Source: a virus. Taken from it: DNA of 64,000 bases. The position numbers and the translations under genes are program-made. Every line of letters begins with the position of its first letter. Within the stretch, counting starts at the first letter, position 1. The DNA lies in the IMG/VR virus record IMGVR_UViG_3300037069_001724, positions 7,521 through 71,520 of that record; one strand, written 5' to 3'. Below the pieces are notes generated by a model that saw nothing but the letters and a program-made list of their open reading frames with translations, did not search any database and was not told the origin of the DNA. This document shows, piece by piece, positions 2,176 through 53,282 of the stretch.

Positions 2176-4332
2176 TTATCGCTTTTTGGACCCGCTACGG
2201 GTAGCCGGGGCCGGTTTACCCTTTATATGGGCCGGCGCCGGGCGGCCAGATTGCTTTAGGGTTAAAGCGATATTTGGCGCCGCCAGCGCCGCCGCCTCGG
2301 CGTGGGAGTGCTTCGCGTTTCCCCAATTCGTGCCCCACTCTGCGTCGACGAGAAACGGAACGCCGCACTGATAGACCGTTCGCATGATCTCGACGACGCG
2401 CGCTCCCTTATCGGGGTCCGTCATCGAGAACGAGAGCTCGTCGTGCATCTGGAGCATGGGAACGAGTCCCTCCTCCCAGCACTGCGCCATGGCCATCTTC
2501 ATCTGCCGCGCGGCGCTGCCCTGGATCCTGCGGTTCATGGCCTTGTGCGTGTGACTGCGCTTGATGCGCTTGTTGAACCACGGATGGTTCTCATCCGCCG
2601 CCCGCGCCTCCGCGTCAGCACGATGCGTCGGACCCATGGGCCGATGCTCGGACATACCGCGCTGCCACTCGCCCTTGTCCAGCCACGCCGCCTCCCACAT
2701 GTCGAAGTGTGCGCGGGCACCGTCGATCATGCGAATGTAGCCTCGCTCCTGCGCCGCCTTCTCGCAGCGCTGACCGAACTCCCGCACGAACGGCAGCTTG
2801 GTGTCGTACTGCTTCATGATGGACTCTGCCTCCTCGAACTCCGCGCCTATCATGGTGGCGAACTTGCGCACGCCGGCCCCGAACGCCTTGGCGAAGTTGC
2901 AGTCCTTGGCCCTTCGACGTGTCAGCCCGGTCATCTGGACCACGAGGTTGTGAAAGTCGGTCTTAGGGTCGTTGCGATACATGTCCGCTGCCTCGACGGC
3001 GCGGGCGCATCCCGCCTCCTCGGCGTCGTTCACTATGTGTCGATACTCCTGCTGCGAGTAGTCCGGGCTGAACCAGAGCGTTCCCTCCTCCGGCTCGAAC
3101 ATGCTGCGGTACGCGGTCGCGATCTCACCTGTCAGTTTCCAGCTCTCGATGGGATCCGGCCGACTCGGGGCCTGCTGAAGCGGCGGATCGGCGTACGACA
3201 GGCGCTGACTTCGCGTGCCACCCTCCTCCGTGCGAAACTGGTTGATGGACGCGTGCACTCTGCCGCGATGCGTGAAATCCATGATGTACGCCTTCACGAA
3301 CTTCTCGGCCGCCTCGTGACACTGCTTCGCCTCCGCTATCATCAGCGGGAGCCAGTGCTCGGCCGCGCGCATCCAGTCCGCCTCGAAGCTGGCCTTGGCG
3401 CTGCCCTCCTCGCCCTTCATGTTGTACGGCACCTTCTCAATGTCGAACACACTGATCAGCCACCGGCTCGACCGTATCTCTTCCATTCCGACAGGCATCT
3501 TGAGGCGGCTGGTGAGCTCGGCCAGCGCCGCGTCCCTGCGCGCGTGCAGCCACTTTCGCAGCTTCGCGGCCTGATCCACGTTGACCCTGATGCCGGTGCG
3601 CCGCATCTGGTGGATCAGCGGAACCAGACGCATCTCGGTTCGGTACGCCTCCGTCAGCCTCTGCTCCTCCATCTCCGGGCGCAGACTGTCCATCAGCAGC
3701 AGCGTGCTGACAGGGTCCTGCTGACCGTAGATGCCGGCGTACCGCGCCGGTAGTCGCGCGATGTTGGCCACCGCGTCGTTCGCCGAGAAGCCGTAGACAT
3801 TCGCCGCCTCGATCAGTGCAGCCTTGTCCTTCCCCTCCACCCCCCGCCATCGGCACGTCGCGTCGAGGCTGTTGTCCAGCCGGTTCTCGTCCACCATGAA
3901 CGCGGCGCACGACGCGTCGTCGATCTTGGGCGGGGGGAGGACACCGAGGTCGGTCTGGAGCCAGCCGATGTCGTAGCCGGCGTTGAAGAACACGACGCTG
4001 CACGTCGCGAACAGATCGCGGAGCCACTCGGCCACGCGATCCTTGTCGAAGTTCTCCGTCTCGGGATGCCTGATCGGCACGTACATGCGCCCGATGTCCG
4101 CGCCCTGACGCCACGCCACGCCGACGCCGGCCACGTAGCCGGAGCCGAAGGCCCATCCGGGGCCGACACCCCTCAGCAGACCGAGGTCCCTAGTCTCCGT
4201 GTCCACCGCTATCTCGCCCGCGCGCCGCAGATCCGGCAGCTCGGTCGGCGGCGTCCAGTCGCTGTCCGGTGTTATCAGCGGGATCTGATCCGGGTTCAGC
4301 CTCGTGGCGCGCGGGCGGATTATCCTTGGCAT
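2176..4332 (-). CDS. polA: family A DNA polymerase with 3'-5' exonuclease domain
   Basis: Exo I AVDTET, Exo II FNAGYD, Exo III YGQQD; motif A DYSQQEYR, motif B RRRAKDCNF, motif C MHDEL. Confidence 0.95.
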   Translation of the reverse strand: MPRIIRPRATRLNPDQIPLITPDSDWTPPTELPDLRRAGEIAVDTETRDLGLLRGVGPGWAFGSGYVAGVGVAWRQGADIGRMYVPIRHPETENFDKDRVAEWLRDLFATCSVVFFNAGYDIGWLQTDLGVLPPPKIDDASCAAFMVDENRLDNSLDATCRWRGVEGKDKAALIEAANVYGFSANDAVANIARLPARYAGIYGQQDPVSTLLLMDSLRPEMEEQRLTEAYRTEMRLVPLIHQMRRTGIRVNVDQAAKLRKWLHARRDAALAELTSRLKMPVGMEEIRSSRWLISVFDIEKVPYNMKGEEGSAKASFEADWMRAAEHWLPLMIAEAKQCHEAAEKFVKAYIMDFTHRGRVHASINQFRTEEGGTRSQRLSYADPPLQQAPSRPDPIESWKLTGEIATAYRSMFEPEEGTLWFSPDYSQQEYRHIVNDAEEAGCARAVEAADMYRNDPKTDFHNLVVQMTGLTRRRAKDCNFAKAFGAGVRKFATMIGAEFEEAESIMKQYDTKLPFVREFGQRCEKAAQERGYIRMIDGARAHFDMWEAAWLDKGEWQRGMSEHRPMGPTHRADAEARAADENHPWFNKRIKRSHTHKAMNRRIQGSAARQMKMAMAQCWEEGLVPMLQMHDELSFSMTDPDKGARVVEIMRTVYQCGVPFLVDAEWGTNWGNAKHSHAEAAALAAPNIALTLKQSGRPAPAHIKGKPAPATRSGSKKR

Positions 4333-5130
4333 CTACTCCATCCCCGTCCACGCGACGAAGTCGTCTCCTATGACATACTTGCCGCTGCTCTCGATCCAGC
4401 GATACATCTCGCGTGCCCACGGCGGCTGCTCGTCGTGCTCCTTGGCGTTCATCTCGCGCTTGAGGCAGACGTAGTTCTCGCGTAGCTCGCTCGGCACCGC
4501 GCCCATCTTGATGACATAGAATGCGCCGCTCTCGCGATACTTGCCGACGAGACATCGGGGTATCTCCACGGTCTTAGGAACAACGGTGTCCAGCACGAAC
4601 GTGTTGGACTGTCCCAGGCGATGCCAGTACATGTTCCACTGCTCCACGGTCACGTTGCCCGCCAGCCACTCGCGGTCGGCGAGATACGGGTGATGACTCT
4701 CGTGGTGTCCACCGTCCTCCGGCGTGCCGGGTCGGTAGTCGTGCACCTTACCGTCGATCCTCACGTGATCGAAGTGCGGCCCTATGGTCCTGACGCCGTC
4801 GGCCTTCTGTCGGGCTACTCTCTCGACAATCTCCTGCGACATCATCTCGGCCTCGACCAGCAGCAGATACCGACGAAGATCCCTGACCTCCGCCAGCATG
4901 GTTCCGTCGGCACCGTCAGGGGCCGCCGCTATGTGCGCGAAGATGTCGTACTGCGCACTGCCGCCGGCGATCATGCTCTCCATGCGGTCCCACTTGCGCG
5001 CCAGCATCATGAAGGCACCGACACCGCCGCGCTTCTTCCAGCTACCCTGATACGTTTTCTCTCTCATCTCGACGAACGCTATGTCCTCCTCGCTCACTAT
5101 CCCGAGATATTTCATGTGGTCCATGTTCAT
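4333..5130 (-). CDS. nucleotide-modification-associated all-alpha (Nmad1/DUF1599/MazG-like) putative dNTP pyrophosphohydrolase with C-terminal extension
   Basis: N-terminal REKTYQGSWKKRGGVGAFMMLARKWDR...DLRRYLLLVEAE pattern; context next to HD and TS-like genes. Confidence 0.6.
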   Translation of the reverse strand: MNMDHMKYLGIVSEEDIAFVEMREKTYQGSWKKRGGVGAFMMLARKWDRMESMIAGGSAQYDIFAHIAAAPDGADGTMLAEVRDLRRYLLLVEAEMMSQEIVERVARQKADGVRTIGPHFDHVRIDGKVHDYRPGTPEDGGHHESHHPYLADREWLAGNVTVEQWNMYWHRLGQSNTFVLDTVVPKTVEIPRCLVGKYRESGAFYVIKMGAVPSELRENYVCLKREMNAKEHDEQPPWAREMYRWIESSGKYVIGDDFVAWTGME

Positions 5131-5653
5131 CGTAACCCTCCTGTTGCTGTCGCCTGTCGCAGTACCGCTTGACAGCGGCCTGAGTGGTGTCGTCCATGGT
5201 GTCGCAGATGGCGCCCGCCGCCTGTATCATGCGCAGCGCAACGAGCTGACCGTACTTGTTGCCTAGCGCGAGCTCGTGAAGTCCCCACTCCCACATCTCG
5301 ATGTACTCGCACATCTTGAAGAAGCGGTGGTCGGCATAGTCGAGCGTGATGCGCCGAGGAACGCCCCACTGTTCGGTCATCTTGGCGTGTATCTGGCTCT
5401 CGAGGATCTCCATCCGGTCCTTGAGCACCTGATCGTTCTTCTTGCCGGGATACGGGATGTCGCCACCCATCTCGCCGACGTCGTGCGTCACGGCGTGCAC
5501 CAGCAGCCGACGGCTCACGTCCGGCCGCACCGCGAGCATGATGCGCATGATTTGAGCCGAATGTTCACCGACTGATTGATCTCGAGTGCGAGGCCAAGTA
5601 TGAAACCTAGTTATTTGCAGGGCAACTCGAGGATCATGTGTAGGATCTATCAC
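5042..5653 (-). CDS. HD-domain 5'-deoxynucleotidase (YfbR-like)
   Basis: RFHT..QSVGEHS...HDVGE..GDIPYP motifs; GTG start overlaps upstream stop (GTGA); ORF-track N-terminal extension discarded. Confidence 0.85.
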   Translation of the reverse strand: MIDPTHDPRVALQITRFHTWPRTRDQSVGEHSAQIMRIMLAVRPDVSRRLLVHAVTHDVGEMGGDIPYPGKKNDQVLKDRMEILESQIHAKMTEQWGVPRRITLDYADHRFFKMCEYIEMWEWGLHELALGNKYGQLVALRMIQAAGAICDTMDDTTQAAVKRYCDRRQQQEGYDEHGPHEISRDSERGGHSVRRDERENVSG

Positions 5654-6711
5654 CTGCGATGCCTCCCTATCCAGCCCATTGCCGCGCGGCGCCAGTCGTC
5701 GGCCTCGACCTGCCGCACGCGGGTCACGGCCATGTCCCACCAACCCGCGCGCCGCGCCTTGTTGGCCATGCACATGGGCGCCGCCACGCGGTCGAACCAT
5801 CTGTTGTTATACGTCGGCGTGGTCATGTCACTAAGTCCAGCGGCGTGCCACCGCATGAAGTTCGACAGGTCCTCGTCCCAGTGATAGAAGCTGTCTCCGA
5901 TCGGCAGCGGAACTACGAGCTCGTCGCGATACGGGTCATCCATCATTGGAGGGATCTCATCGACCAGTGGCAGAAACACGTCGTCGTAGGCGTGATAGTT
6001 GTTCGAGAGCTGGTACATCTTGCCCACGCCGACCCCGATGCGACCGGCGAGATACTCCTGTAGAAAGCTGAAGTGCACGGCGTTGGCGCCGTAGGCTCCC
6101 CACACGATGTCGTTGCTGCGACACATGACCGTCAGGTCCAGGACGTACTTGCGCGTTGGATGCTCGGAGTCCACGTGACCGATGTCGCGGTCGTAGTCCT
6201 CGCGAACGCGCAGATAGACGTGCGTGTTGCAGGGGCGATCCCTCCAGTCGCCGGTGAGATCTTGCTCTCCAACTCTGCCAGACAACTGATGCCGCGCGTC
6301 CCACATTTGGATCACTGCTTGTCTATCGTCGCGATTACTGCGCAGCCTCGTCACGACCTCGTCCAGTTGATCAATGCCGAGGGCGCTGCGCCAGCGGTGC
6401 CCGTAGGCACCGTGGATCACGCCGTCGTCGGCGTATCGCTTGCTGAACGTGGCCACGTAGGCGTCCAGCATCTTGGCGTCGTTCTGCCCGCTCAGCATCC
6501 AGAGACACTCGAACAGGTGAAAGAACGGATTGGCATCACGCGCTGGATCGAACAGAACACGCTGCGTTGAACTGTCGTAGATCGACATGACAGGGCAGTC
6601 CATCACGGTCACTGGTCCGTTGCGGCTGTCGCTCTTGCGCCCGTACTTCCTGAGCATCAGCATGCCGTTATGATACAGATCGTTGACGTTGGTTCCCAGT
6701 AGTGTGATCAA
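5650..6711 (-). CDS. thymidylate synthase homolog, probable dUMP hydroxymethylase (M6/YuA type)
   Basis: DANPFFHLFE, GAYGHRWR, catalytic PCN, RSNDIVWGAYGAN (Asn = uracil specificity), NNYHAY; TTG start overlapping upstream TGA. Confidence 0.85.
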   Translation of the reverse strand: MITLLGTNVNDLYHNGMLMLRKYGRKSDSRNGPVTVMDCPVMSIYDSSTQRVLFDPARDANPFFHLFECLWMLSGQNDAKMLDAYVATFSKRYADDGVIHGAYGHRWRSALGIDQLDEVVTRLRSNRDDRQAVIQMWDARHQLSGRVGEQDLTGDWRDRPCNTHVYLRVREDYDRDIGHVDSEHPTRKYVLDLTVMCRSNDIVWGAYGANAVHFSFLQEYLAGRIGVGVGKMYQLSNNYHAYDDVFLPLVDEIPPMMDDPYRDELVVPLPIGDSFYHWDEDLSNFMRWHAAGLSDMTTPTYNNRWFDRVAAPMCMANKARRAGWWDMAVTRVRQVEADDWRRAAMGWIGRHRR

Positions 6712-7136
6712 TGCTTCCTCCTGCGCAGTAAGTCGTTGACTCCCTCGGCCATCCGACCAAAGAACTCCCTCGAGTCCTTCTGTTTCTCCGGCGTCAGGTC
6801 GTTGTACATCTGATACTTGACGCGAAGACCGTCGAGTAGTCTCTTCTCGATGCCGGCGATGTGACGCTCCGACTCCCAGAGCGCCTCCTGGCTGCCTAGC
6901 TCGATGGCCGGCGCCTCCTCGCTCATGAAGATTGTCATGCACGACAGGATCAGTTCGTGCATCACCAGCTTCGACGCGCTCAGGCACAGCGACTGCTCCA
7001 TGCACAGTTTGAACATGATGTTCGATGTGGTGGCAGCCACGCCTATGACACGCGACAGCGCGTGGTTTCTCGTGTTCTCGTCCTCGAAGCATCCGCATCC
7101 TGGCTCCGGGATCACGTCGATATCAAACTTTGTCAT
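6708..7136 (-). CDS. hypothetical protein
   Basis: 142 aa, translationally coupled on both sides, GGAGG RBS. Confidence 0.6.
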   Translation of the reverse strand: MTKFDIDVIPEPGCGCFEDENTRNHALSRVIGVAATTSNIMFKLCMEQSLCLSASKLVMHELILSCMTIFMSEEAPAIELGSQEALWESERHIAGIEKRLLDGLRVKYQMYNDLTPEKQKDSREFFGRMAEGVNDLLRRRKH

Positions 7137-7594
7137 CAGCCAACCTCCTCCTTGTGATAAGCCGCGTAGAGCTCCTCGAGAAGCAGGCCCACGGCCTTCC
7201 TGTTCTCAGAACCATTATACCATCTATTGCGGCCACTCGGATGAGGTACTTGTCGCCACGTACTCCCACCGATGTCCTGCGGATGGAGCAGCAGCGGGGG
7301 GTGGCAGAAGGCGCGGCGCACCTCCTCGCCGAGCAGAACTATTGTGCGGCGCGATCCCCAGAACTCTGCGTAGAACAGGTCGGCGGACTTGCGCGCCGTG
7401 TCCCGGTCCCAGTCCCCTACGACGAGGTTGCGTCGCTCGAACGTATCGAGGTAGTTCTGTCGTCGCAGGTCCGGGCGCCGCTCGCGCAGCATCTCGAAGA
7501 TGCGGTGCCCGGTGCAGCCCGGCGGATACGGGAACAGCGCGTGCTCCGGTCGAACCGACAGAGGGTTCTGCATTCCGATGAGAACTGGTTTCAT
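7136..7594 (-). CDS. uracil-DNA-glycosylase-fold protein
   Basis: VLIGMQNP, TGHRI, FERRNL, IVLLGEEVRRAF and PHPSGRNRWYN motifs; ATGA overlap start. Confidence 0.7.
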   Translation of the reverse strand: MKPVLIGMQNPLSVRPEHALFPYPPGCTGHRIFEMLRERRPDLRRQNYLDTFERRNLVVGDWDRDTARKSADLFYAEFWGSRRTIVLLGEEVRRAFCHPPLLLHPQDIGGSTWRQVPHPSGRNRWYNGSENRKAVGLLLEELYAAYHKEEVG

Positions 7595-8151
7595 AGCTTC
7601 AGCCACCACTTGATCGCGTTGAAGCACGCCTCGCGGTCGCCCGCGAACACGTTCGGCACTCGCAGCGCGCGGAACGTCTTCACGTTGCTGTCCACCTTCC
7701 GCATCGTCTTCTCGATGCTGGCGGCGGCTATCTTGTGGCCGCGCGCCCGCACGCCCTCGACGCACTGCTCCAGCGGCGTGGTAAGGTGCACGATGCGCGC
7801 GTCGTGACCCTCCCGCACGAGCTGCATGAAGTTTGTGGTGCCGTCGCCCATGTTCATCCCCTCGTACAGCACGTCCATGGCGCCGGTGGTGATGGACGTG
7901 GACGCCACCGTGCGAATGGTGTTGTAGACGTCGTTCAGGTCGCCGATGGTGTCGATGCCGCCGTTCGCAATCTGGTAGTGACCGAGAACCACCAGAATGG
8001 CGCCCGTCGGCGGGTCCCGCGTGAACACGCTCATGATGGGCTTCTTGCGCTTCGGCGCCATCACGTCCTGCTGACCGGGATACATGGCCATGATGCGCCG
8101 GGCGAGATGCGACTTACCGCTGCCGCTAGTCCCTCGGATGCTGATGATCAT
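7591..8151 (-). CDS. P-loop kinase of the type associated with 5-hmdU DNA kinase / thymidine hypermodification
   Basis: IISIRGTSGSGKS Walker A, VLGHY..GGIDTI, VLYEG, LTTPLEQCVEGVRAR. Confidence 0.8.
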   Translation of the reverse strand: MIISIRGTSGSGKSHLARRIMAMYPGQQDVMAPKRKKPIMSVFTRDPPTGAILVVLGHYQIANGGIDTIGDLNDVYNTIRTVASTSITTGAMDVLYEGMNMGDGTTNFMQLVREGHDARIVHLTTPLEQCVEGVRARGHKIAAASIEKTMRKVDSNVKTFRALRVPNVFAGDREACFNAIKWWLKL

Positions 8152-9182
8152 CACCGCTCCTCCCACGGTCTGAGAACCGGCTTCGTCTGCGGCGACAGCG
8201 CGTTGACGCGCGCGATCTCCTCGCGTGTCTGCGCGTCCGGCCTGCGCAGCGTTCCGCTACCGTCGTAGTTCGGCAGAATGCCGACCCTGAAGCTACGATG
8301 ATCGCAGCCCTTGCACGGCCTGAGCATGTCGCGTCGACCGGCATACAGTGCCTCGCGCGCCGCCCCGAACGCCGGACCATTCCAGATGGCCTCGATGCCG
8401 TCGGTCAGTATGTTGCCGCAGTGATACTCACCTCGCCAGTCGTTGCAGCACACGGCCACCGATCCGTCCCAGTGAATGGCGAGCTGACGGAACGGAAGTG
8501 CACAACGCTTGCCCTGCATCCTGTCGTTCGGGGGCGCCCCCGCTCCGGCGTGGTTCGACAGTCGATTGTGATTGCCCTTCTTGTCAGTCTTCTCGGTCCA
8601 CGCTATGTCCTTGATGCGAACGAGCATTCTGGTCCCCGGCTTGTATCGAGCGTGTGGATTGCCGCGCGAGTCGTACGGATACTCGTAGAAGTTGAACTGC
8701 TGACCACCGTGTGCGCTGTACTTCTCGCCAGAAACGAATTGAAGATTACCCTGCATCGCGGTCAGAACCTTCGGAACATACTCGATGTTCTGGTAGTGAT
8801 CGAGGCCGAGGATCGTCAGCCCGGCGTCGAACAGCGCGTTGACATTGGCCACCGCACCCGGCTTTCGCAGCAGTCCACCGGCGTTCGTCAGCATCAGCTT
8901 GGTCGAGCGCGGTCTGTGCTCGTGCGTGATCGCCACCATGCCGGCGTAGTTCGGATGCTGCGTCGGGTCGCCGCGCATGGCGAAGCCGATGCGCGAGTTC
9001 CAGCCCAGCTCGGCCACCTGCTCCATCGCGCTGCGCATCGTGGCCTCGGCCATGAACTTGTAGCCGTGGCCCTGCTTCTCCTGAATGCCAGCGATCCCGC
9101 AGAACGAGCATCGGAGATTACATCCCATGCTCAGCTCGAACGAGAGACTGTTCGGCGGCTCCTGCCTTCTGTACTTTCGCAT
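8151..9182 (-). CDS. radical SAM enzyme with C-terminal SPASM/twitch domain
   Basis: CNLRCSFC (CxxxCxxC), MRGDP, LTNAG; C-terminal CALPF...DGSVAVCCND...GNI...PCKGC; start MRKYRR at TGATG overlap. Confidence 0.9.
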   Translation of the reverse strand: MRKYRRQEPPNSLSFELSMGCNLRCSFCGIAGIQEKQGHGYKFMAEATMRSAMEQVAELGWNSRIGFAMRGDPTQHPNYAGMVAITHEHRPRSTKLMLTNAGGLLRKPGAVANVNALFDAGLTILGLDHYQNIEYVPKVLTAMQGNLQFVSGEKYSAHGGQQFNFYEYPYDSRGNPHARYKPGTRMLVRIKDIAWTEKTDKKGNHNRLSNHAGAGAPPNDRMQGKRCALPFRQLAIHWDGSVAVCCNDWRGEYHCGNILTDGIEAIWNGPAFGAAREALYAGRRDMLRPCKGCDHRSFRVGILPNYDGSGTLRRPDAQTREEIARVNALSPQTKPVLRPWEER

Positions 9183-10171
9183 CACGCCATCTCCCTCTCC
9201 AGCTTGACCTGCGCCGACTTCATCTGCTCCAGCAGCAGCCCGTGATAATTGCCGCGTATCCACTGCCTGCGCTGCTCCAGGCCGTGCTTGTCCCTGTCCA
9301 CCATGAACTTGGCCACGTCGCGGGCCTTCTCCACGACCCACGGCGCGGGATCGTAGCCCGCCTTGCGCAGCATGGGACCGCACTCCTGCTGAAACACCAT
9401 GGGCAGGCCGGCGCTCAGCATCTCGTAGAACCGATTGGCCGGGCTGTGAAAGTTCTCGCTGGATTTGCGGTCCTCGATGTAGAGGCCGAGACCGTTGGTG
9501 CCCAGCACGTTGTAGAAGTTGTCCAGTATCGGTCCGACGTGCGTGCACTTGGGATATCGCTCGGCGAACTGCTTCGCCGGGCTGCTGATGGTGGTCGCCA
9601 CCGTCGGCTCCGCGAAGTAGCGGTCGAACAGCGGCACGCGACTGGACTTGCCGGAGCCGTCGCGATACGACCCGTAGTACAGCAGCGTCTTGCTCGCGCT
9701 GCTGCCGCGCCGCTGCGTGATCCTCTTCTCGCTGAAGTCCTTGTCGAAGGTCAGCATGTTCCAGTTCACGTACGAGCTGCCCTTTCGCTGAGACCACTCC
9801 TCGCACGTCGACCAGAAGTCCATGTGCGGCTTGCCGGCCTCGTGCCTCTCGCGGAACGCCGCGCGGAACGGACTGATGCCCTCGCTCTCGATCTTCGGCG
9901 GAATGATGCTGTAGTCGTTCTGTATCCAGACGATGCGACGCGCGGTCTTCACCAGCGCCGCGAGTTCCGGCAGACACTTGCAGAAGCCATACGCCCCGTT
10001 GACGATGTAGAGAACGTCCAGCTCGGCACCGTCGTACTGTCGAATATTCTGGTAGTCGACCTCCGGCAGCTTGAGATGCGCCGCCACGTACTTGAGAATG
10101 CGAATACTCGCGACCATGCTGTTGTCGCTGATCCGCACGAACGAGAACACGATGCTATTGGCTCTTGGCAT
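9182..10171 (-). CDS. GT-B glycosyltransferase resembling T4 DNA beta-glucosyltransferase
   Basis: DVLYIVNG, LLYYGSYRDG, LYIEDRKSSENFHSPANRFYEMLSAGLPMVF resemble T4 BGT segments as recalled (IYGGSFRSG; IIGDKNYNDNFITLRVWETMAS). Confidence 0.7.
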   Translation of the reverse strand: MPRANSIVFSFVRISDNSMVASIRILKYVAAHLKLPEVDYQNIRQYDGAELDVLYIVNGAYGFCKCLPELAALVKTARRIVWIQNDYSIIPPKIESEGISPFRAAFRERHEAGKPHMDFWSTCEEWSQRKGSSYVNWNMLTFDKDFSEKRITQRRGSSASKTLLYYGSYRDGSGKSSRVPLFDRYFAEPTVATTISSPAKQFAERYPKCTHVGPILDNFYNVLGTNGLGLYIEDRKSSENFHSPANRFYEMLSAGLPMVFQQECGPMLRKAGYDPAPWVVEKARDVAKFMVDRDKHGLEQRRQWIRGNYHGLLLEQMKSAQVKLEREMA

Positions 10172-10391
10172 TTTCAATCTCCCTCAGGCGTGTCAGAACG
10201 CCGCGTTTCCTGTCTAGCTCGCCTCTGACGAACTCGCGTATCTTGGCTAGGCGATTGTAGCGCTCCTCCGCCTCGACCATCGTCTCGCGCGCTCTCTGCT
10301 CCTCTCTCATCACGGCGCTGGCCAAGCCGTTCAGGCCGTCGATCTCCTCCACGATAGCCCTGATCGGGTTGAATGGTGTCGGCTCTGTCAT
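10155..10391 (-). CDS. small coiled-coil hypothetical protein
   Basis: MTEPTPFNP..., 78 aa, ATGA overlap with upstream gene. Confidence 0.55.
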   Translation of the reverse strand: MTEPTPFNPIRAIVEEIDGLNGLASAVMREEQRARETMVEAEERYNRLAKIREFVRGELDRKRGVLTRLREIENAKSQ

Positions 10392-11344
10392 CGGTAGACC
10401 CCTCTCGGCTTGCCCTCGCCAAGCCTGACGCGCTCGTACTTGTCGAACTCGCAGAGCGTATGCTCCACCTCGCGCATTTCCCACGCCGGCCATTTATTCT
10501 CAATTTCCCTGCGATGTCTCTCGTCAAACGAACCATCGCCGCACGAGGCCGTATCTGCATGTGGCCACATTCTAGCATCCCTCGAGATCTCTAGCAACGC
10601 GCGCATCTCTTCTATGAGACCATCCCTGCCGACAGTGTGATCCTTCACCTTGCGCTCGTGCACGCGGTTCAACCCACGCCGCGCCCCCGGTCCCGGGTTC
10701 GCCCAAGTCAATATATCGGGGGCGCCTCCGAGAAGCGTGGTGTGACGCAGGTCGGTCACGATCTCGTACGAGTGGAACGGCCCGAAGTAGTCGTTACGCT
10801 TGAACCAGTCCCAGGCAATCTCCAGTGAGGAGTGTCCGTCCATCTTACTCATGTAGTTTGCCTCGACCTGCCAGCCAGACTTCTTATTGAACGTGTCGAT
10901 GATCTTGAGCATCCCGTCCAGCTTGTTCATTCCCGGCGGACTGCTGATGATGTAGGCCCCGGTGACGTATGGTCCGTTCCCGCAGTTCGCCAGTATCGCA
11001 CGCTTGAGAACAGCCACCTTGCCCGTCTCCATGTACTGAGCCCACGCGCTCTCGTACTCGATGTCGGCTTGGTTCCAGATGGCCTCGCCCACCGATATGC
11101 GGTTCAGCAGCCGAAAGACCACGGTCGCCAGCATCACCTCGTCGGTGTTACGCATCGGATCGCGGACGTTCTTCCTGAACCAGACGGTTGTCTTGTCTAA
11201 TTCTCTATAGATATTTGTAAAGCGATATTGGTTGAGAATTGGATCTTTAGACCATGGTCTTGGTTTCCCCGCTGTTCTATCAAGATATATTTGATGACGC
11301 GCCCGCGCGTACCGGAAGAAAGCATTGGTGCCACGACTGGTCAT
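10388..11344 (-). CDS. alpha-glutamyl/putrescinyl thymine pyrophosphorylase clade 1 (5-hmdU DNA kinase helical domain) protein
   Basis: ARHQIYLDR..G.PRPWSKDPILNQYRFTNIYRELDKTT, TGAYII, GPFHSYEIVTDL, NPGPGARRGL, EVEHTLCEFDKYER. Confidence 0.9.
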   Translation of the reverse strand: MTSRGTNAFFRYARARHQIYLDRTAGKPRPWSKDPILNQYRFTNIYRELDKTTVWFRKNVRDPMRNTDEVMLATVVFRLLNRISVGEAIWNQADIEYESAWAQYMETGKVAVLKRAILANCGNGPYVTGAYIISSPPGMNKLDGMLKIIDTFNKKSGWQVEANYMSKMDGHSSLEIAWDWFKRNDYFGPFHSYEIVTDLRHTTLLGGAPDILTWANPGPGARRGLNRVHERKVKDHTVGRDGLIEEMRALLEISRDARMWPHADTASCGDGSFDERHRREIENKWPAWEMREVEHTLCEFDKYERVRLGEGKPRGVYR

Positions 11345-11619
11345 TTCAATCTCCACACGCCGGGCACCACCAAGCGAAACAGATCTTCTTGTCCGGTGTA
11401 CCACTCCTGCTCACGGCTGTGACGCTGCAACGTGCATCGAACGGTGCTGGTCGCTGTCTTCGGCCAACTGCGACCCTTCGACTTGCGAAGCTTCTCCATC
11501 TTATCGTATATAGATGGAAGGCTAATCTCCTTGCCAGTCTTGAGAACAGTGACCAAGTCAGCAGTCCAGTCGCCACTAACAGTGTCGACCGTTTCTTCAC
11601 CAGTGAACATGTCTCTCAT
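11341..11619 (-). CDS. small winged-helix-like DNA-binding protein
   Basis: ISLPSIY...STVRCTLQRHS...GQEDLF..VVPGVWRL pattern; ATGA overlaps at both ends. Confidence 0.55.
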   Translation of the reverse strand: MRDMFTGEETVDTVSGDWTADLVTVLKTGKEISLPSIYDKMEKLRKSKGRSWPKTATSTVRCTLQRHSREQEWYTGQEDLFRLVVPGVWRLK

Positions 11620-12161
11620 TTTCCCCTCCTCAGTCTCTTGTGTGCCATCTGGACGCACTTCGCCTGATGCTCCGCGTCGTCCAGGGCGTTGTGGTAGGTT
11701 CCTATTCTCTTGATCGCGTTGTAGTTCAGTCCCGCCATGGCGTACGCGGTGCGAGTGTCCCGCGCATTGTAGAACTTCCACGGCGGCGACCTGCCCACGG
11801 CCCGACAGGCCGCGTCCCACAGAACGCCGTCGAAGTTGCTGCCCTGCGACCACACGAAGAAGCCGGCATTCTTGTTGAACCAGCGCTCGAAGTCCCGAAC
11901 CGCCGTGTCGAGGCTGACGGGCTTCAGTAGCAACGACTCCTGCGCCGCTGGTGACTGCTTCGCCCACCAGTCCAGCGTACCAAGATCCATCGACAGGCCG
12001 GCCTCCGCGCTCGAGACGTGCGTGATGTTTCGGTAGAACTTCGACCCCACCGCGTCGGAGTCGGCGTCGAACATGACGGCCCCGACGCTGCGGACGATGG
12101 AGCCGACCGACGTTCCGAACGTCTCGAGATCTATCATGCAGTCGTTGCAGTCTACAACCAT
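11616..12161 (-). CDS. DEDDh 3'-5' exonuclease (Rv2179c/exonuclease VIII-like)
   Basis: MIDLETFG, VWSQGSNFD, PWKFYNARDTRT, HNALDDAEHQA. Confidence 0.9.
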   Translation of the reverse strand: MVVDCNDCMIDLETFGTSVGSIVRSVGAVMFDADSDAVGSKFYRNITHVSSAEAGLSMDLGTLDWWAKQSPAAQESLLLKPVSLDTAVRDFERWFNKNAGFFVWSQGSNFDGVLWDAACRAVGRSPPWKFYNARDTRTAYAMAGLNYNAIKRIGTYHNALDDAEHQAKCVQMAHKRLRRGK

Positions 12162-13681
12162 GGACAGTACCTCCCGCTTCGGTCCGGGTCCACCAGCGTC
12201 AGGCGGTCCCGCGCTCTGGTGACTCCGACGTACCAAACGCGCCGCTCGTCGTCCGGATTGCGCGCCATCTCGTCGTGAGTGCGCAGCGCCATGTCTGTCA
12301 TCAGCACCACGTGATCAGCCTCGCCGCCCTTGGCGCTGTGTATGGTGGACACGCGAACGCGCGGCTTGCTGCGCAGCTTCTCGCCGTGGCGTAGCGCCGC
12401 CTGCATGTAGACTGTGTCCTCGCTAGGTATGCGGTCGAGGGCGTCGTACCACGGCTTCTCGAGGCTCGCTCGCAGACCACCGTCCCTCACGAGCTCGGCC
12501 GCTGTCACCAGCACGTCTCCGATCTCGCCGAACGACGGTAGCTTCTTGTGTCCGTGCTTGACTCCAGTGTTCGTCGACAGGAACTGATACATCTGTCGCG
12601 CCTCGTCCAGTCGCACCGGCTTGTCGCGCGTCAGACGCGTCCACGTCTCCGCCGCTCCCAGTCCGTCAAGGTTCAGGCTCGACTTGCCGTTGCTCATCTC
12701 GTACACGACGCCGATCCTTCGCAGCACCGGCTCGATGATCTTCTGAATGTACGAGTTGTTCCTGGCCAGCACGAGCACACTGTCTCTCGCCATGTCCGCG
12801 TCCACGAACTCATTTACGCGCCTGATGCCCCCCGCTCCACCCTCCCGCGCCCTCCACACCTTGGCGCGTCGATGCTTCACAGGCCCAATGACCTCGTTGG
12901 ACAGAAGCTGGACAGGCGGGGGGCAGCGGAAGGACTGGCCAAGTACGCGAACCTTGCCGTCCATGTCGATCATGTGTTCGACGTCGGCGCCTGACCATCT
13001 GTATATGGCCTGATCATCGTCGCCGGCCACGCAGACGCGACGAGCCTTCTTGGCCAGCTTCTCGAATACCCGCCACTGAAGTGCGCTGAAGTCCTGCATC
13101 TCGTCGCCGATGAGAACGTCCAGGGATATGCTGGCCGTGGACTTCACGAACTCAGACAGCGTGTCCGTGAAGTCCAGCAGACCGTTCTGCTTCTTGAAGT
13201 TGGCCAGTGCCTCGGCCACGCGCTTGACCTCCTTCCACGGCAGATTGTCGTCGAACTCGTCGAACTGACTCTTGAGCGGCACCATGCGCACGCGCGCCAT
13301 GTTCTCCATGAACAGAATACGGTCTCCGATCTCGAAGCCGCTGAGTATGCCGTCGTCCGACCATGCTCTGCCGGTGACGCGCAGACCAACGTAGTTTGCG
13401 AACTCGTTCATCTTCTCTCCGACCAGCATGTCACTGTTCCGCAGTCCCAGAACCCTGAAGCACATGCTGTGAAGCGTGCGAAACCACGGCAGCTTCTCCT
13501 TGCGGTCGAACTTGAACCGCTCGGCCGCGCGCTCCGCCGCCTCGTTGGCCGCCTTGACGGTGAACGAGAAGAAGCCGATGCGCGTCGGATCCGTCTGTCT
13601 CGCCAGCTCCTCGTCCACGATGTTCAGGAGCGTGGTGGTCTTGCCGGTGCCCGGTGGTCCTAGGTAGATCTCAGGATGCAT
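12152..13681 (-). CDS. UvrD/Rep-like superfamily 1 DNA helicase
   Basis: GPPGTGKTT, FRTLHS, DEMQD, AGDDDQAIY, QSFRCP, STIHSAKGGEAD, YVGVTRA. Confidence 0.92.
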   Translation of the reverse strand: MHPEIYLGPPGTGKTTTLLNIVDEELARQTDPTRIGFFSFTVKAANEAAERAAERFKFDRKEKLPWFRTLHSMCFRVLGLRNSDMLVGEKMNEFANYVGLRVTGRAWSDDGILSGFEIGDRILFMENMARVRMVPLKSQFDEFDDNLPWKEVKRVAEALANFKKQNGLLDFTDTLSEFVKSTASISLDVLIGDEMQDFSALQWRVFEKLAKKARRVCVAGDDDQAIYRWSGADVEHMIDMDGKVRVLGQSFRCPPPVQLLSNEVIGPVKHRRAKVWRAREGGAGGIRRVNEFVDADMARDSVLVLARNNSYIQKIIEPVLRRIGVVYEMSNGKSSLNLDGLGAAETWTRLTRDKPVRLDEARQMYQFLSTNTGVKHGHKKLPSFGEIGDVLVTAAELVRDGGLRASLEKPWYDALDRIPSEDTVYMQAALRHGEKLRSKPRVRVSTIHSAKGGEADHVVLMTDMALRTHDEMARNPDDERRVWYVGVTRARDRLTLVDPDRSGRYCPWL

Positions 13682-13682
13682 G

Positions 13683-13844
13683 TCAGTCTCCATCATCCAT
13701 GAGAGCGTCATCTACACCCTTTTCATGACACTCCCACATAGCTTGTTCAATATCCTTTGCCAAACTCTCTGTGGGGATATTTTTAACGACCGAGTCCATG
13801 ACACTCACAGTGTAGGTGCCGTCCATCTCTTTCCTGTAGTTCAT
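13683..13844 (-). CDS. hypothetical protein (53 aa)
   Basis: MNYRKEMDG... with GGAG RBS. Confidence 0.45.
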   Translation of the reverse strand: MNYRKEMDGTYTVSVMDSVVKNIPTESLAKDIEQAMWECHEKGVDDALMDDGD

Positions 13845-13845
13845 C

Positions 13846-14061
13846 TCAGTCTCCCAGCTTCTTGGCGCAGTCGGGGCAGGCGGCCATCCACTCGTTGATG
13901 CCGTTGCGATACGTCGCGTAGAACGACCATCCCATAGCCTTGGCCTCGTCGCGCGTCTCCTTGAACTTGGCGTCGCCCGCGCTGTAGTTTCTGTTGCAGT
14001 GCCGACCGCCGACACCGTCGCAGTTGAAAACCAGCTCACCGTCCAGCATCTCGTGGCTCAT
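13846..14061 (-). CDS. small zinc-finger-like protein
   Basis: CDG....C and CPDC cysteine pairs; ATGA overlap. Confidence 0.55.
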   Translation of the reverse strand: MSHEMLDGELVFNCDGVGGRHCNRNYSAGDAKFKETRDEAKAMGWSFYATYRNGINEWMAACPDCAKKLGD

Positions 14062-15623
14062 ATCTTCGACTCCTTGATCTTAGGTGGTGGAATGTCCGGT
14101 CCCTCCTTGAACGACTTGCTCGGAACCCACCAGCAGTAGATGCACGATCCCTTGATATGCTGCTGACCTGCCTCGCCGCCCAGCCGCTTGATGCGAACCG
14201 TGATCTGGCCCTGCTTGAGGTCCTTGACGCCCTCGCGCTCCAGGAACTTCTCGAACGAGTTGAGCCTGAAGTAGTGCCGCCCCTCCTCCTCGTCCTCCCA
14301 CGGCCTTCCAGAAAGCAGATCCTCGCGAGACTCGCCGCGCTGCCGATTTGTCAGATACTCGTGCAGGAGCTCCTTGAACCGCCCCCCGATCTGAATGTCC
14401 GGGGGCACCGGAATGGGCGTGCAGTTGATCAGCGCGTCGTTCAGTACAGCGAACCACTCCTTCTTCGTCAGCGGCATGAACGACTTGTTGAGGTTCTCGA
14501 TGCAGAGCCTGTGGAAGTCGTCGTAGTTGTGAAGCTGACGCGAGTCGCACTGTATGCTCTCGGTCTCGCCGTCCAGCGACACGAAGAATATGGCCGGCTC
14601 CGTGGCCATCTTGCTCATGGTCGTGATATGCGGATAGGTGCCAGCCGCTCCGACACCGTGCTTGCGTATGCGGCACTTCACCGCGTCGCAGTGGCTCTCC
14701 ATCGGCTGGTCCTTGCACTTGTACTGATAGTCCCTGCGGTCCAGCGACTTGATGACACCGGCCACGCCGTCCGACGGATGCGGCGGCTTGCAGTATTTCT
14801 GGTTCGCCTCCTCCAGCCTCTCCTTCCAGCTCTCTGGACTCGCCTTCTTGAAGTAGACGCCCATGTGAAACAGCGCGTTGTTCTGGCCGCCCTGAGCTAT
14901 GCCCGCCGCCGCCAGATGCTCGAGACACGGTGGACCGTCCGAGAACGGAGATCGCACCTTGCTTGCCTTCTTCGCCTTGGGCGCTGTCAGCACTGCGGGG
15001 TCTATGGCCGCCTCCTCGCAGGCCGTGCAAAACTCCACGACGGTCATGTCGGCGCCGGTCCGCTTGATGCCGTGCTGCCACTTCAGCAGGTTCTTGTACG
15101 TGTCGCCGTAGTACGGCATCACCATCCAGCTACCGCGCTCCCCTCTGGATACCATCAGCTTGGTCTGCTTCGGAAAGATCTCGGACTTGGCGAAGCCGAT
15201 GCTGGCGGCCACGTCCCTTAGATATGCCTGAAGTATCGCTGCCGGAACCGGCTTCCTAAAGAATATGAACAGATGCAGGCCGCCGGACTTGCTGCGGCAG
15301 ACCACGAGTGGCAGCTTGGAGTCCTCGATCCTCTTGATGATCTCGAGCGGGTCGAGGTCGCCGTCGTACTCGTCCACGTCGATGCTGCCCCACTTGCACA
15401 GTCCCTGCTCGTCGTCCTGGATCGGCGCGATGCCCAGCGGCGTCTTGCCGTCGAGATGCTTCTTCCAGAGCTCCGGGGTCGTCGGTCCCAGGACTGTCTT
15501 CGCGGTGGTCTTGATGGCGGCCTTGCCGGTGGTGTGATCATATACTGGTAGTCCGTGCGTTCCGTAGCTCGACTGGTTCCCCTCGAAGAGAGCCATGATG
15601 CGCTCGAGTGCAGTTGGTGACAT
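14058..15623 (-). CDS. AEP-family DNA primase/primase-polymerase with PriCT-like and Cys-rich region
   Basis: WGSIDVDEY, RSKSGGLHLF, EIFPKQ, MPY; GPPCL..GGQNNALF; C..PM..HC...C. Confidence 0.8.
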   Translation of the reverse strand: MSPTALERIMALFEGNQSSYGTHGLPVYDHTTGKAAIKTTAKTVLGPTTPELWKKHLDGKTPLGIAPIQDDEQGLCKWGSIDVDEYDGDLDPLEIIKRIEDSKLPLVVCRSKSGGLHLFIFFRKPVPAAILQAYLRDVAASIGFAKSEIFPKQTKLMVSRGERGSWMVMPYYGDTYKNLLKWQHGIKRTGADMTVVEFCTACEEAAIDPAVLTAPKAKKASKVRSPFSDGPPCLEHLAAAGIAQGGQNNALFHMGVYFKKASPESWKERLEEANQKYCKPPHPSDGVAGVIKSLDRRDYQYKCKDQPMESHCDAVKCRIRKHGVGAAGTYPHITTMSKMATEPAIFFVSLDGETESIQCDSRQLHNYDDFHRLCIENLNKSFMPLTKKEWFAVLNDALINCTPIPVPPDIQIGGRFKELLHEYLTNRQRGESREDLLSGRPWEDEEEGRHYFRLNSFEKFLEREGVKDLKQGQITVRIKRLGGEAGQQHIKGSCIYCWWVPSKSFKEGPDIPPPKIKESKI

Positions 15624-51911: not shown

Positions 51912-53282
51912 TCAGTCTTCCCTGTTGATGGGCGTCCGCGCCTGAATGATGTCGGACACGCGCTCGATCACCTGTCTCCAGTCACCCTGCTTCTGCTGAC
52001 GGACCTGCATCACGTTCGCGTACCAAGGAGACGACTGACGCGAGCCGAACCAGCGCCAGCAGTTGTCCCTCGGCGTCATGACGATGGTGGGAACGCCGAG
52101 CGCCCCCGCGAGATGTGCGACAGCGGTGTCCACCGCCACCACCAGATCGAGACACACGATCAGGCGCGCGGTGTCGTAGAAGTCGTGTATCCCCACCTCG
52201 TGGTGCCGCATCTGGAACGGAGGTGCGCGGTACGGATACTGAAGACTGTGCCACTCCACGCCGAGCAGCGCCCCGAGCGGCGCGATCAGCGAGAGGTCCC
52301 CGATACTCTTCATGGCGGCCAACTGCGCCAGCTCCGGCTGGAGAGGCCTCTCGCCCGCGTGCCAGCAGATGCCGACGCGCGTGATACCATCGACTACTTG
52401 CGGACCGTCCTCCATCGGGCGAACGTGGACGTATGGCTGCGGCCGAATGTCGTCGATGATGCCGACGTGAGCCGCTCGCGCCGCGCTCATGATCGACATG
52501 GCGTGCGACACCTCGCGCGGTATCGAGTCTCCGTAGGCCACAACACCGTCGATGCCCTGCGTTCCGTGGATCACGAGATCCAGCAGCGGCTTCTTGGCCT
52601 CGAGCCAGATCTTCATGCGCGGATACATCGACTTGAGCGCGAAGGCGTACCGCATGAACATGATGTAGTCGCCGTGGCCCTGCTCGCCGTAGATGAGCAG
52701 ACCACTCGGCAGTGCGTCCGCCATGCCGTTCCACTCCGGCACTCCGAGGTGACGCCGCGCCGCGTTCGGCATCCGGCGACGCCACTCGAGCTCGTCCCAT
52801 CCCTCGCGAAGGTGACCGGCGCGGAGCAGCGCGTTCGCGAAGCTCGTGTGCATGGTCGGCGTGTCTGGCTCCGCCTCCACCGCGCGCCGCATCAGCGCGA
52901 TGGCCTCGTCGTCGCGGTCGTCGAGTCTCGCGAGCGACGCTAGGTTGTGCAGCGCGGGAGCGTGACGCGGATCTAGCTGCGTCGCGTGCTCCCAGCATCG
53001 CTGCGACTCGTCGAACCGGCCCATCTGCATCCAGGCGACGCCCTCGTCGGCGAGCCAGTTCGCGCTCGGTCCGGCGTGGTCCATCGCGCGATCGAGACAC
53101 TGCATGGACTCGAACGGCATTCCGATCTTGCCGAACAGAGCGCCGCGCGCCGCCCAAGCCTCGGAGTAGTTGGGACGCAGGATCAGTGCCTCCTGGAGCG
53201 CGACGAACGCTCCCTGCACGTTGCCGCGCGCCGCGTGGTTGCTGGCGCTCTCGAAGAACTGCTCGGCGGTGATCTCACTCAT
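51912..53282 (-). CDS. TPR-repeat protein with GT9-like glycosyltransferase domain
   Basis: N-terminal TPRs; EQGHGDYIMFMRY, RVGICWHAG, DFYDTA....LDLVVAVDTAVAHLAGALGVPT, WRW...SPWY. Confidence 0.88.
   Translation of the reverse strand: MSEITAEQFFESASNHAARGNVQGAFVALQEALILRPNYSEAWAARGALFGKIGMPFESMQCLDRAMDHAGPSANWLADEGVAWMQMGRFDESQRCWEHATQLDPRHAPALHNLASLARLDDRDDEAIALMRRAVEAEPDTPTMHTSFANALLRAGHLREGWDELEWRRRMPNAARRHLGVPEWNGMADALPSGLLIYGEQGHGDYIMFMRYAFALKSMYPRMKIWLEAKKPLLDLVIHGTQGIDGVVAYGDSIPREVSHAMSIMSAARAAHVGIIDDIRPQPYVHVRPMEDGPQVVDGITRVGICWHAGERPLQPELAQLAAMKSIGDLSLIAPLGALLGVEWHSLQYPYRAPPFQMRHHEVGIHDFYDTARLIVCLDLVVAVDTAVAHLAGALGVPTIVMTPRDNCWRWFGSRQSSPWYANVMQVRQQKQGDWRQVIERVSDIIQARTPINRED

Follow-up and report, generated by a model that had tools for sequence, protein, structure and literature searches.

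Can a bacteriophage glycosylate 5-hydroxymethyluracil (hmU) in its DNA with an enzyme of the kind that phage T4 uses on 5-hydroxymethylcytosine (hmC)? Base J, a glycosylated hmU, is known from kinetoplastids, and the glycosylation of phage DNA by enzymes resembling the T4 beta-glucosyltransferase (BGT) is known for hmC; to our knowledge, no phage enzyme of BGT fold is known to glycosylate thymine-like bases. The question is raised here by a gene cluster found in a stretch of 64,000 nucleotides, hereafter designated as the window, which corresponds to bases 7521-71520 of the 71.5-kb viral record IMGVR_UViG_3300037069_001724 (CheckV completeness 99%). This record is a tailed-phage genome encoding a family A DNA polymerase, a primase, helicases, a major head protein, a portal and a large terminase. 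A first-pass annotation of the window had pointed to the open reading frame (ORF) at positions 9182-10171 as the gene of a glycosyltransferase (GT) of GT-B type that might produce base J in a phage. The analyses reported below identify its product as a remote homologue of BGT, which probably acts on thymine-like bases rather than on cytosine and whose gene is translationally coupled to that of a radical S-adenosylmethionine (SAM) enzyme. Unless stated otherwise, coordinates are those of the window, and all genes of the cluster are on the minus strand.

A remote homologue of the T4 beta-glucosyltransferase

The GT gene (9182-10171) starts with an ATG at position 10171, with GAGGGAGA just ahead, and ends with a TGA at 9184-9182, giving a product of 329 amino acids. 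Both GT-B motifs quoted at first pass are present in this ORF, LLYYGSYRDG at residues 163-172 and LYIEDRKSSENFHSPANRFYEML at residues 230-252, and their conserved positions are invariant in 69 family members. The protein matched no Pfam family at E ≤ 0.01 and no PHROG or NCBIfam model. There was also no match to PF09198, a domain found in all 42 T4 BGT homologues, so that the GT falls outside the Pfam BGT family. Querying 50,697 deposited phage genomes by tblastn at 1e-5 gave no match, and no close cultured relative is known. Homologues amounted to 390 proteins at E ≤ 1e-3 among 90%-identity clusters; the 120 of these that were listed are all unnamed or 'hypothetical', none with a precomputed Pfam domain. 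Clustered at 50% identity, the family comprises 437 representatives or clusters. Relatives were found on IMG/VR viral contigs in 97 cases, 80 of which were retained as loci for comparison.

The AlphaFold2 model of the GT, built with 34 sequences, displays a two-domain GT-B fold with a mean predicted local distance difference test score (pLDDT) of 93.3. T4 BGT entries occupied ranks 1-5 in Foldseek (E 8e-9 to 3e-8) and ranks 1-4 in VIA-align (Z 20.4-21.4, root-mean-square deviation 3.4-3.9, 290-297 residues aligned), followed by an unrelated GT-B enzyme (Z 17.0) and by the T4 alpha-glucosyltransferase (16.9). Profile-profile alignment with hhalign matched a family profile of 69 diverse members (A3) to a profile of 24 BGT-family proteins (A2) at 97.9% probability and E 5.4e-13, the 297 aligned columns extending across the two proteins. 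The BGT-like fold anticipated from the motifs was thus recovered by structure and by profile.

In the profile-profile alignment, D86 of the GT corresponds to D100 of BGT, which is invariant in the BGT family and was replaced by Ala in the D100A structures among the Foldseek matches. GT residues R170, R178, R247 and E250 align with BGT R191, R195, R269 and E272, which we take to be residues binding uridine diphosphate (UDP). These four GT residues are invariant across the 69 members of A3, at least 90% of which also keep D86. Among 71 non-identical members from the loci, 70 have Asp or Glu at the D86 position and the remaining one has a gap there, and the four nucleotide-binding positions are invariant except for one Lys at R170. 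Because these residues are invariant and aligned to those of BGT, itself the top structural match, the motifs quoted at first pass are not chance matches. Based on the fold match, the profile alignment and the aligned conserved residues, the GT is a remote, full-length homologue of BGT that has its catalytic and nucleotide-binding set intact and lies outside the Pfam family.

A neighbouring enzyme of the uracil type

About 2.5 kb downstream of the GT gene, in the same gene string, is the gene (5650-6711) of a thymidylate synthase (TS)-fold enzyme of the M6/PaMx11 type (PF00303, 3.5e-17; phrog_5131, 4.3e-87), a putative deoxyuridine monophosphate (dUMP) hydroxymethylase. Along its entire length, this protein shares 39-40% identity with the TS enzymes of M6-like Pseudomonas phages, and its score is far under what the ThyA equivalog models of NCBIfam require of a true thymidylate synthase. 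Aligned with E. coli ThyA, T4 gp42, M6 gp58 and PaMx11 gp51, it keeps the catalytic Cys, Arg166 and Asp169. It carries CRSNDIVWGAYGAN, whose Asn aligns with ThyA N177, as the first-pass annotation had proposed in calling this neighbour uracil-specific, and its WGAYGAN motif is common to M6 gp58 and PaMx11 gp51. T4 gp42 has ND at the place of N177, its Asp being one column off in the MAFFT alignment.

The N177 column was then read in 30 sequences, the window enzyme and 29 TS homologues from GT-bearing records, five of which were incomplete as extracted. It holds Asn in 23 of 25 sequences and Asp in the other two, from loci L083 (G038) and L091 (G025), both of which also have a PCT motif as in T4 gp42.

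Two routes to hydroxymethyluracil accompany the family

Whole-record searches covered 50 of the 80 loci (39 on contigs of at least 25 kb and 11 shorter), and 18 of these 50 records are at least 90% complete. A TS homologue was detected in 33 of the 50 (13 of the 18 most complete) and a Tet_JBP dioxygenase in nine, eight of them over the cut-off (three of the 18). One or the other occurred in 42 records (16 of the 18), and no record had both. In the two remaining records of at least 90% completeness, an ORF with a ParB_N domain lies directly upstream of the GT. HMUDK_hel, formerly aGPT-Pplase clade 1, was found in 31 records (12 of the 18) and a SPASM radical SAM protein in 16 (five of the 18). 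The amino-acid:DNA transferase (ADDT) was over the cut-off in none of the 50 records, and hence in none of the 18; a single sub-threshold match fell within an HMUDK_hel ORF, and the ADDT of PaMx11, used as a positive control, was detected. A count of AAA_33 kinases in relatives was dropped as too insensitive (17 of 50 at E ≤ 0.01, only four over the cut-off); by phmmer, a kinase homologue was found in 21 of the 80 loci.

A Pfam scan around ten loci devoid of TS revealed ParB_N in six and Tet_JBP in six, often in the order ParB, TET, GT. Occasional extras were a TAGT enzyme of GT-A type, an epimerase, a BtrN-like radical SAM enzyme, and an APS-kinase-like protein with a cytidylyltransferase-like one. 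No C5-cytosine methyltransferase was seen beside these ten TET/ParB-type loci. Published work is consistent with this pattern, as ParB-linked phage 5mYOX enzymes are described as having been shown to be thymine dioxygenases, and a C5 methyltransferase as occurring in only 6% of the surveyed 5mYOX pathways (PMC13229309). The family thus accompanies two unrelated routes to hmU, which argues for hmU or a derivative as its acceptor and is the strongest argument available. In the record searches, TET-linked members come without HMUDK_hel, so that phosphorylated hmU would be no general requirement of the family. Overall, the hmU context suggested at first pass is supported by the Asn of the TS homologue, by synteny with the M6 and PaMx11 clusters without their ADDT (see below), and by the ParB and TET/JBP genes beside distant members.

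The two kinds of context are also reflected in the GT itself. TS-type GTs have an extra helix at residues ~100-109 (window 9845-9874), with conserved Arg103, Phe/Trp106 and Arg109, which is a gap in 10-11 of the 11 TET-linked members and in all four ParB-linked ones.

Several loci deserve separate mention. L028 and L037 contain, at about 5700-14100, a NAD epimerase/dehydratase, a 707-amino-acid protein, a ParB-like protein, a GT of the family and a TAGT enzyme of GT-A type, to which L037 adds a BtrN-like radical SAM enzyme and a second radical SAM protein; these two loci look like multi-sugar DNA hypermodification clusters. In L070, genes for APS-kinase-like P-loop and cytidylyltransferase-like proteins (11121-12000) directly follow the GT in a ParB/TET context. 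The Asp-type TS gene of G038 adjoins an HMUDK_hel gene, so that a cytosine-type TS stands beside hmU-kinase machinery, an unusual combination.

Distant members of the family also occur in the cultured E. coli phages IME392 and EP_H11, where they are 30% identical to the GT of locus L049. The cluster of these phages comprises a PIG-L deacetylase, a 344-amino-acid ORF, the GT, HMUDK_hel, an AAA_28 P-loop protein, a TS and an HD-domain protein, and spans 4295-10607 in Escherichia phage vB_EcoM_IME392 (L116). The top BFVD structural match of the window GT is a 359-amino-acid viral protein that has the annotated length of the IME392 gene product and may be the same protein. Both phages were predicted to be T-modified from their aGPT-Pplase, and their kinase was reported as undetectable (PMC13697223, PMC12686479); the AAA_28 P-loop protein of IME392 may be the kinase that went undetected in PMC13697223.

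A BtrN-like radical SAM partner

The gene following the GT (8151-9182) encodes a BtrN-like radical SAM enzyme of the twitch/SPASM type (343 amino acids; Pfam SPASM 1.9e-14), and its start overlaps the GT stop by one nucleotide (TGATG). Searched against the PDB, a profile of 18 homologues matched BtrN (4m7t) at E 5.9e-35, the next match being at 1e-7. The alignment runs in two stretches, covering the SAM core and the auxiliary-cluster domain. The AlphaFold2 model (pLDDT 88.6) has the same BtrN structure as its best Foldseek match (2.6e-16, TM 0.81 on the target), with anSME as runner-up (3.8e-8). The cysteines C21, C25 and C28 of the CxxxCxxC motif are invariant, as are C227, C245, C246, C290 and C293.

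A homologue was detected by phmmer in 24 of the 80 loci, on the strand of the GT in all 24 and within ~300 nt of it in 17. This association is present in TS and TET contexts alike (L051, L037). Close relatives also exist without it: in L004, a record that is 100% complete, the order is HMUDK_hel, GT, kinase, phrog_12275 protein and TS, with no radical SAM gene. Because of such relatives, the radical SAM enzyme is viewed as an optional tailoring step, acting most simply on the sugar installed by the GT.

BtrN is the radical SAM 2-deoxy-scyllo-inosamine dehydrogenase, which oxidises a ring secondary alcohol of an aminocyclitol, and the title of its PDB entry gives 2-DOIA as the ligand. The likeness extends over the core and auxiliary-cluster domain and includes the best fold match. 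The phage protein differs from BtrN in length (343 versus about 250 residues, with an insert of roughly 55) and in its setting, a phage DNA-modification operon instead of an aminoglycoside cluster. Judged by this homology, it would be an enzyme of the sugar or cyclitol dehydrogenase type inside a DNA-modification operon. The radical SAM protein of the window is a close relative of BtrN, unlike the SPL-like isomerase of phage M6.

Comparison with the clusters of phages M6 and PaMx11

The gene next to the radical SAM gene (7591-8151) encodes a P-loop kinase homologous to the 5-hydroxymethyldeoxyuridine (5-hmdU) DNA kinase PaMx11 gp49 (BLASTP, 34% identity, E 9e-33). Its Pfam matches are AAA_33 (1.4e-8) and, under the cut-off, HMUDK_HMUD1 (8.7e-4); its start and the radical SAM stop share one nucleotide. 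On the other side of the GT, an HMUDK_hel protein (10388-11404; PF18723, 7.6e-44) is homologous to PaMx11 gp50 and M6 gp55, its best cultured relative being the PaMx11 gp50 region (45% identity by tblastn). This PF18723 protein was also considered as an amino-acid transferase, an assignment that was rejected, as Pfam and the comparison with PaMx11 identify it as gp50 HMUDK_hel and not as gp46 ADDT. In these two reference phages, PaMx11 gp46 and M6 gp51 were shown to be amino-acid:DNA transferases, and gp49 and gp54 to be 5-hmdU DNA kinases (Lee et al. 2021, PMC8989533).

In the window, the genes are ordered HMUDK_hel, a possible small ORF, GT, radical SAM enzyme, kinase, phrog_12275 protein, a 142-amino-acid ORF, TS, HD-domain protein, a 265-amino-acid ORF and DNA polymerase. 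The M6 order is ADDT, a pyridoxal phosphate (PLP) enzyme, an SPL-like radical SAM enzyme, kinase and HMUDK_hel, then, after other genes, TS and HD protein and, further on, the polymerase. PaMx11 has ADDT, a flavin adenine dinucleotide (FAD) enzyme, an acetyltransferase, kinase, HMUDK_hel, TS and HD protein, with the polymerase again further on. The TS-fold hydroxymethylase (39-40% identity), the 5-hmdU DNA kinase (34%), HMUDK_hel (45%), the HD protein and the DNA polymerase are common to the three clusters, and were read as following the same order. In contrast, the window has no ADDT (aGPT-Pplase2) and none of its PLP, SPL-like radical SAM, FAD or acetyltransferase partners, and the BGT-like GT and the BtrN-like radical SAM enzyme occupy the place of the transferase and tailoring genes. 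A search for ADDT (PF18724) gave no match in the whole 71.5-kb genome at E ≤ 1. The GT and its radical SAM partner thus replace the group-transfer and tailoring genes of known thymidine-hypermodification clusters. The window cluster is filed here as newly described, an M6/PaMx11-syntenic cluster with a GT and a radical SAM enzyme in place of ADDT, and the GT is placed, as a putative member, in the class of DNA hydroxymethylpyrimidine glycosyltransferases.

The remaining genes of the string are less informative. Between HMUDK_hel and the GT lies a possible small ORF (10155-10493; up to 112 amino acids, likely shorter), the reality of which is uncertain: its GC content at third codon positions (0.67) is below that of its neighbours, it has one weak relative (L001), and domain and family scans gave no match. 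The phrog_12275 protein (7136-7600; 154 amino acids, phrog_12275 at 7.4e-19) is possibly related to uracil-DNA glycosylases (UDG). Its third Atlas neighbour cluster has the UDG domain PF03167 on 12% of members, no match was found among PDB sequences, and the UDG identity stays a lead; the protein occurs in seven of the 80 related loci. By eye, its GMQNP and HPSGRN motifs may recall those of uracil-DNA glycosylases. The adjacent 142-amino-acid ORF (6708-7136), which comes from the ORF list and has no assigned function, matched no family and has no relative in the 80 loci. An HD-domain protein (5042-5602; phrog_6047, 9e-19), 5'-deoxynucleotidase-like with a YfbR-like match under the cut-off (2.6e-4), takes the position of PaMx11 gp52 and M6 gp59. 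The 265-amino-acid ORF (4333-5130) gave no Pfam, PHROG or NCBIfam match and travels with the cluster, with a relative in 23 of the 80 loci. The string of replication and modification genes ends with the family A DNA polymerase (2176-4332; PF00476, 5e-40; phrog_17).

Candidate pathway and competing explanations

The explanation favoured here, with a probability of about 0.55, is that the GT glycosylates 5-hmU in DNA and that the transferred sugar subsequently undergoes oxidation. The TS-fold dUMP hydroxymethylase would lead to 5-hydroxymethyl-dUTP, and hmU would be incorporated into phage DNA. After replication, the GT would flip out hmU and transfer a hexose from a host nucleoside diphosphate (NDP)-sugar to the 5-CH2OH oxygen, with Asp86 as the general base and Arg170, Arg178, Arg247 and Glu250 holding the nucleotide; the product would be a base-J-like glycosyl-hmU. 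The translationally coupled BtrN-like enzyme would then oxidise a secondary alcohol of the added sugar to a ketone. Other hmU residues would be handled in parallel by the hmU DNA kinase that the cluster has kept, together with its helical partner. Of the original proposal of base J made by a GT-B enzyme, the BGT fold and the hmU context stand. Base J itself is probably not the end product, because the BtrN-like enzyme coupled to the GT should alter the sugar, and the final base in the phage is probably an oxidised derivative. More tentatively, and with the odds somewhat against it, the cluster may yield a keto-sugar (or derived) hmU base of undescribed kind, with a BGT-fold enzyme having taken over from the amino-acid:DNA transferase and a GT-radical SAM pair being exchanged as a unit between hmU systems of the TS and dioxygenase kinds; at its boldest, the proposal has the sugar attached via a phosphate made by the kinase.

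Several observations weigh against glycosylation of hmU followed by oxidation. The acceptor, donor, product, inversion of configuration, order of steps and role of the kinase are all inferred. Profile searching of the GT against PDB sequences brought up a single flagellar protein at E = 1, and hhalign became decisive only once both sides had deeper profiles; when T4 BGT was used as a lone sequence, the shallow alignment A1 matched it weakly and in the C-terminal half only (E 0.062). BGT Glu22, conserved in at least 90% of the BGT family, aligns with Arg24 of the GT, which is mostly Arg or Lys in family members. The Asp-type TS homologues of L083 and L091 suggest that some distant members may take part in cytosine chemistry. 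Family scans of the genome brought up no gene for NDP-sugar synthesis, and the donor is therefore presumably a host nucleotide sugar. Finally, HMUDK_hel is kept in 12 of the 13 complete TS-type genomes, which have no ADDT to use phosphorylated hmU, a retention not accounted for if the GT requires nothing but hmU-OH, and the helix with Arg103 and Arg109 in TS-type GTs could be suited to phosphate binding, though it could also reflect altered DNA contacts.

The last two points bear on the main competing explanation, in which 5-phosphomethyl-dU, formed by the kinase together with its helical partner, receives the sugar from the GT on its phosphate oxygen. The resulting sugar-phosphodiester-hmU would recall the phosphate-then-sugar modifications of SP-15-like phages. 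We regard this as unlikely, while giving it more weight than any other alternative. The kinase is translationally coupled to the GT-radical SAM pair, HMUDK_hel persists in those 12 genomes despite the lack of ADDT, the Arg-bearing helix of TS-type GTs is missing from TET-type members, and one of the next-best fold matches (Z 16.8) is SenB, a GT-B enzyme whose acceptor is selenophosphate. Thymidine modifications of Carin-5 and YerA41 have been described as phosphorylated and then glycosylated (PMC12686479), and IME392 and EP_H11, put in the same group, carry their GT member beside HMUDK_hel, a P-loop protein and a TS. However, the general-base Asp is conserved family-wide, and a phosphate acceptor, being already ionised, would not need it; TET/ParB-linked members do without HMUDK_hel; and the phosphate of bases of the SP-15 type is described as being carried by a pentyl linker rather than by the hydroxymethyl (PMC12686479). 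The kinase branch would either serve another fate of hmU or provide phosphorylated hmU as the GT acceptor. One precedent for another fate comes from phiW-14, in which hmU is reported to be converted to thymine via a phosphorylated intermediate.

That the GT is an hmC glucosyltransferase like T4 BGT, or acts on a host envelope component or a protein, appears improbable. Its closest characterised homologue does act on hmC, Asp occupies the N177 column in two of the 25 associated TS homologues, and lower structural ranks illustrate how widely the GT-B fold is used for non-DNA acceptors. Yet the window TS carries Asn and falls with its counterparts from M6 and PaMx11, a kinase of an hmU-specific family is present together with HMUDK_hel, 42 of 50 related records contain a TS homologue or a TET/JBP enzyme, and the TET/ParB-type loci scanned had no C5-cytosine methyltransferase at their side. 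The GT gene also lies within a replication and nucleotide operon, with one-base overlaps in the GT-radical SAM-kinase string. A slightly more remote explanation still is that the GT acts late, on a hydroxyl of another group put on hmU by the radical SAM enzyme or the UDG-like protein in place of ADDT, or by adding a second sugar. It draws on the GT-A type TAGT gene that stands beside the GT member in some distant loci (L028, L037) and on the unassigned ORFs of the cluster (7136-7600, 6708-7136 and 4333-5130). Against it, family scans of the window showed no other DNA-type GT in the cluster, L004 and similar relatives have no radical SAM gene and leave the GT without an obvious upstream tailoring enzyme, and the phrog_12275 protein is restricted to seven loci.

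Relation to known glycosylation systems

T4 BGT, which we take to be the CAZy family GT63 enzyme, shares with the window GT the GT-B fold, profile homology over the full length, the catalytic Asp, the four UDP-binding residues and a similar size, and both are phage genes near that of a TS-fold hydroxymethylase. The two differ in sequence (about 12% identity, no PF09198 match and Arg24 in place of Glu22), in the partner hydroxymethylase, which is Asn-type (uracil) for the GT and Asp-type in T4, and in genomic setting, the cluster of the GT including an hmU kinase and a radical SAM enzyme. On matched hmU:A, T4 BGT has been reported as inactive (PMC5741180). The reaction predicted for the phage GT, from an NDP-sugar to the hydroxymethyl of hmU in DNA, is that of the kinetoplastid base J glucosyltransferase (JGT). 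In contrast to the GT-B model of the phage enzyme, JGT is grouped with GT-A fold enzymes (10.1101/2023.12.21.572611); its hmU comes from JBP dioxygenases instead of a putative dUMP hydroxymethylase, and a putative sugar-oxidising enzyme is coupled to the phage GT.

Closer in kind are GT53, GT66 and GT94 of 5mYOX clusters (Pyle et al., 10.1101/2023.12.21.572611), likewise phage GT-B enzymes with a structural match to T4 BGT and a proposed catalytic Asp; they differ in having been shown active on 5hmC, and are set beside the window GT by description only. According to the same preprint, 28% of GT-B HMM matches in metaviromes are associated with ThyS, and the chemistry shown there is on 5hmC only. 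In this respect the idea stands less alone than the first-pass annotation assumed, as metavirome surveys have already put in print the associations of GT-B DNA glycosyltransferases with ThyS homologues (10.1101/2023.12.21.572611) and of GTs with phage T-dioxygenases (PMC13229309). The term glycosyltransferase is absent from the main text of Lee et al. 2021 (PMC8989533), and full-text literature searches retrieved no demonstration that a phage makes glycosyl-hmU with a BGT-like enzyme.

If the favoured explanation is true, a widespread family of BGT fold tied to hmU production would represent a convergent second way to J-like bases, a sugar branch would join the amino-acid-based pathways of thymidine hypermodification, and the BtrN-like partner would represent a case of radical SAM catalysis on a DNA-borne sugar. 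A GT-B enzyme specific for hmU would serve 5hmU mapping, and glycosylated hmU bases bear on the escape of phages from restriction and on phage DNA that is hard to sequence.

Other features of the genome

Beyond the cluster, several window proteins are similar to proteins of Pseudanabaena phage Pam3, and megablast of 7 kb of the cluster against phage genomes gave no match. A second glycosyltransferase-like gene of the window (51912-53282, minus strand) encodes a 456-amino-acid tetratricopeptide repeat protein with a short Glyco_transf_9-like match; it adjoins the portal gene and sits in the structural module. In the 7.5 kb of the record that precede the window, a gene at L082:2019-2879 (minus strand) encodes a SAM-dependent methyltransferase (Methyltransf_25, 3e-15).

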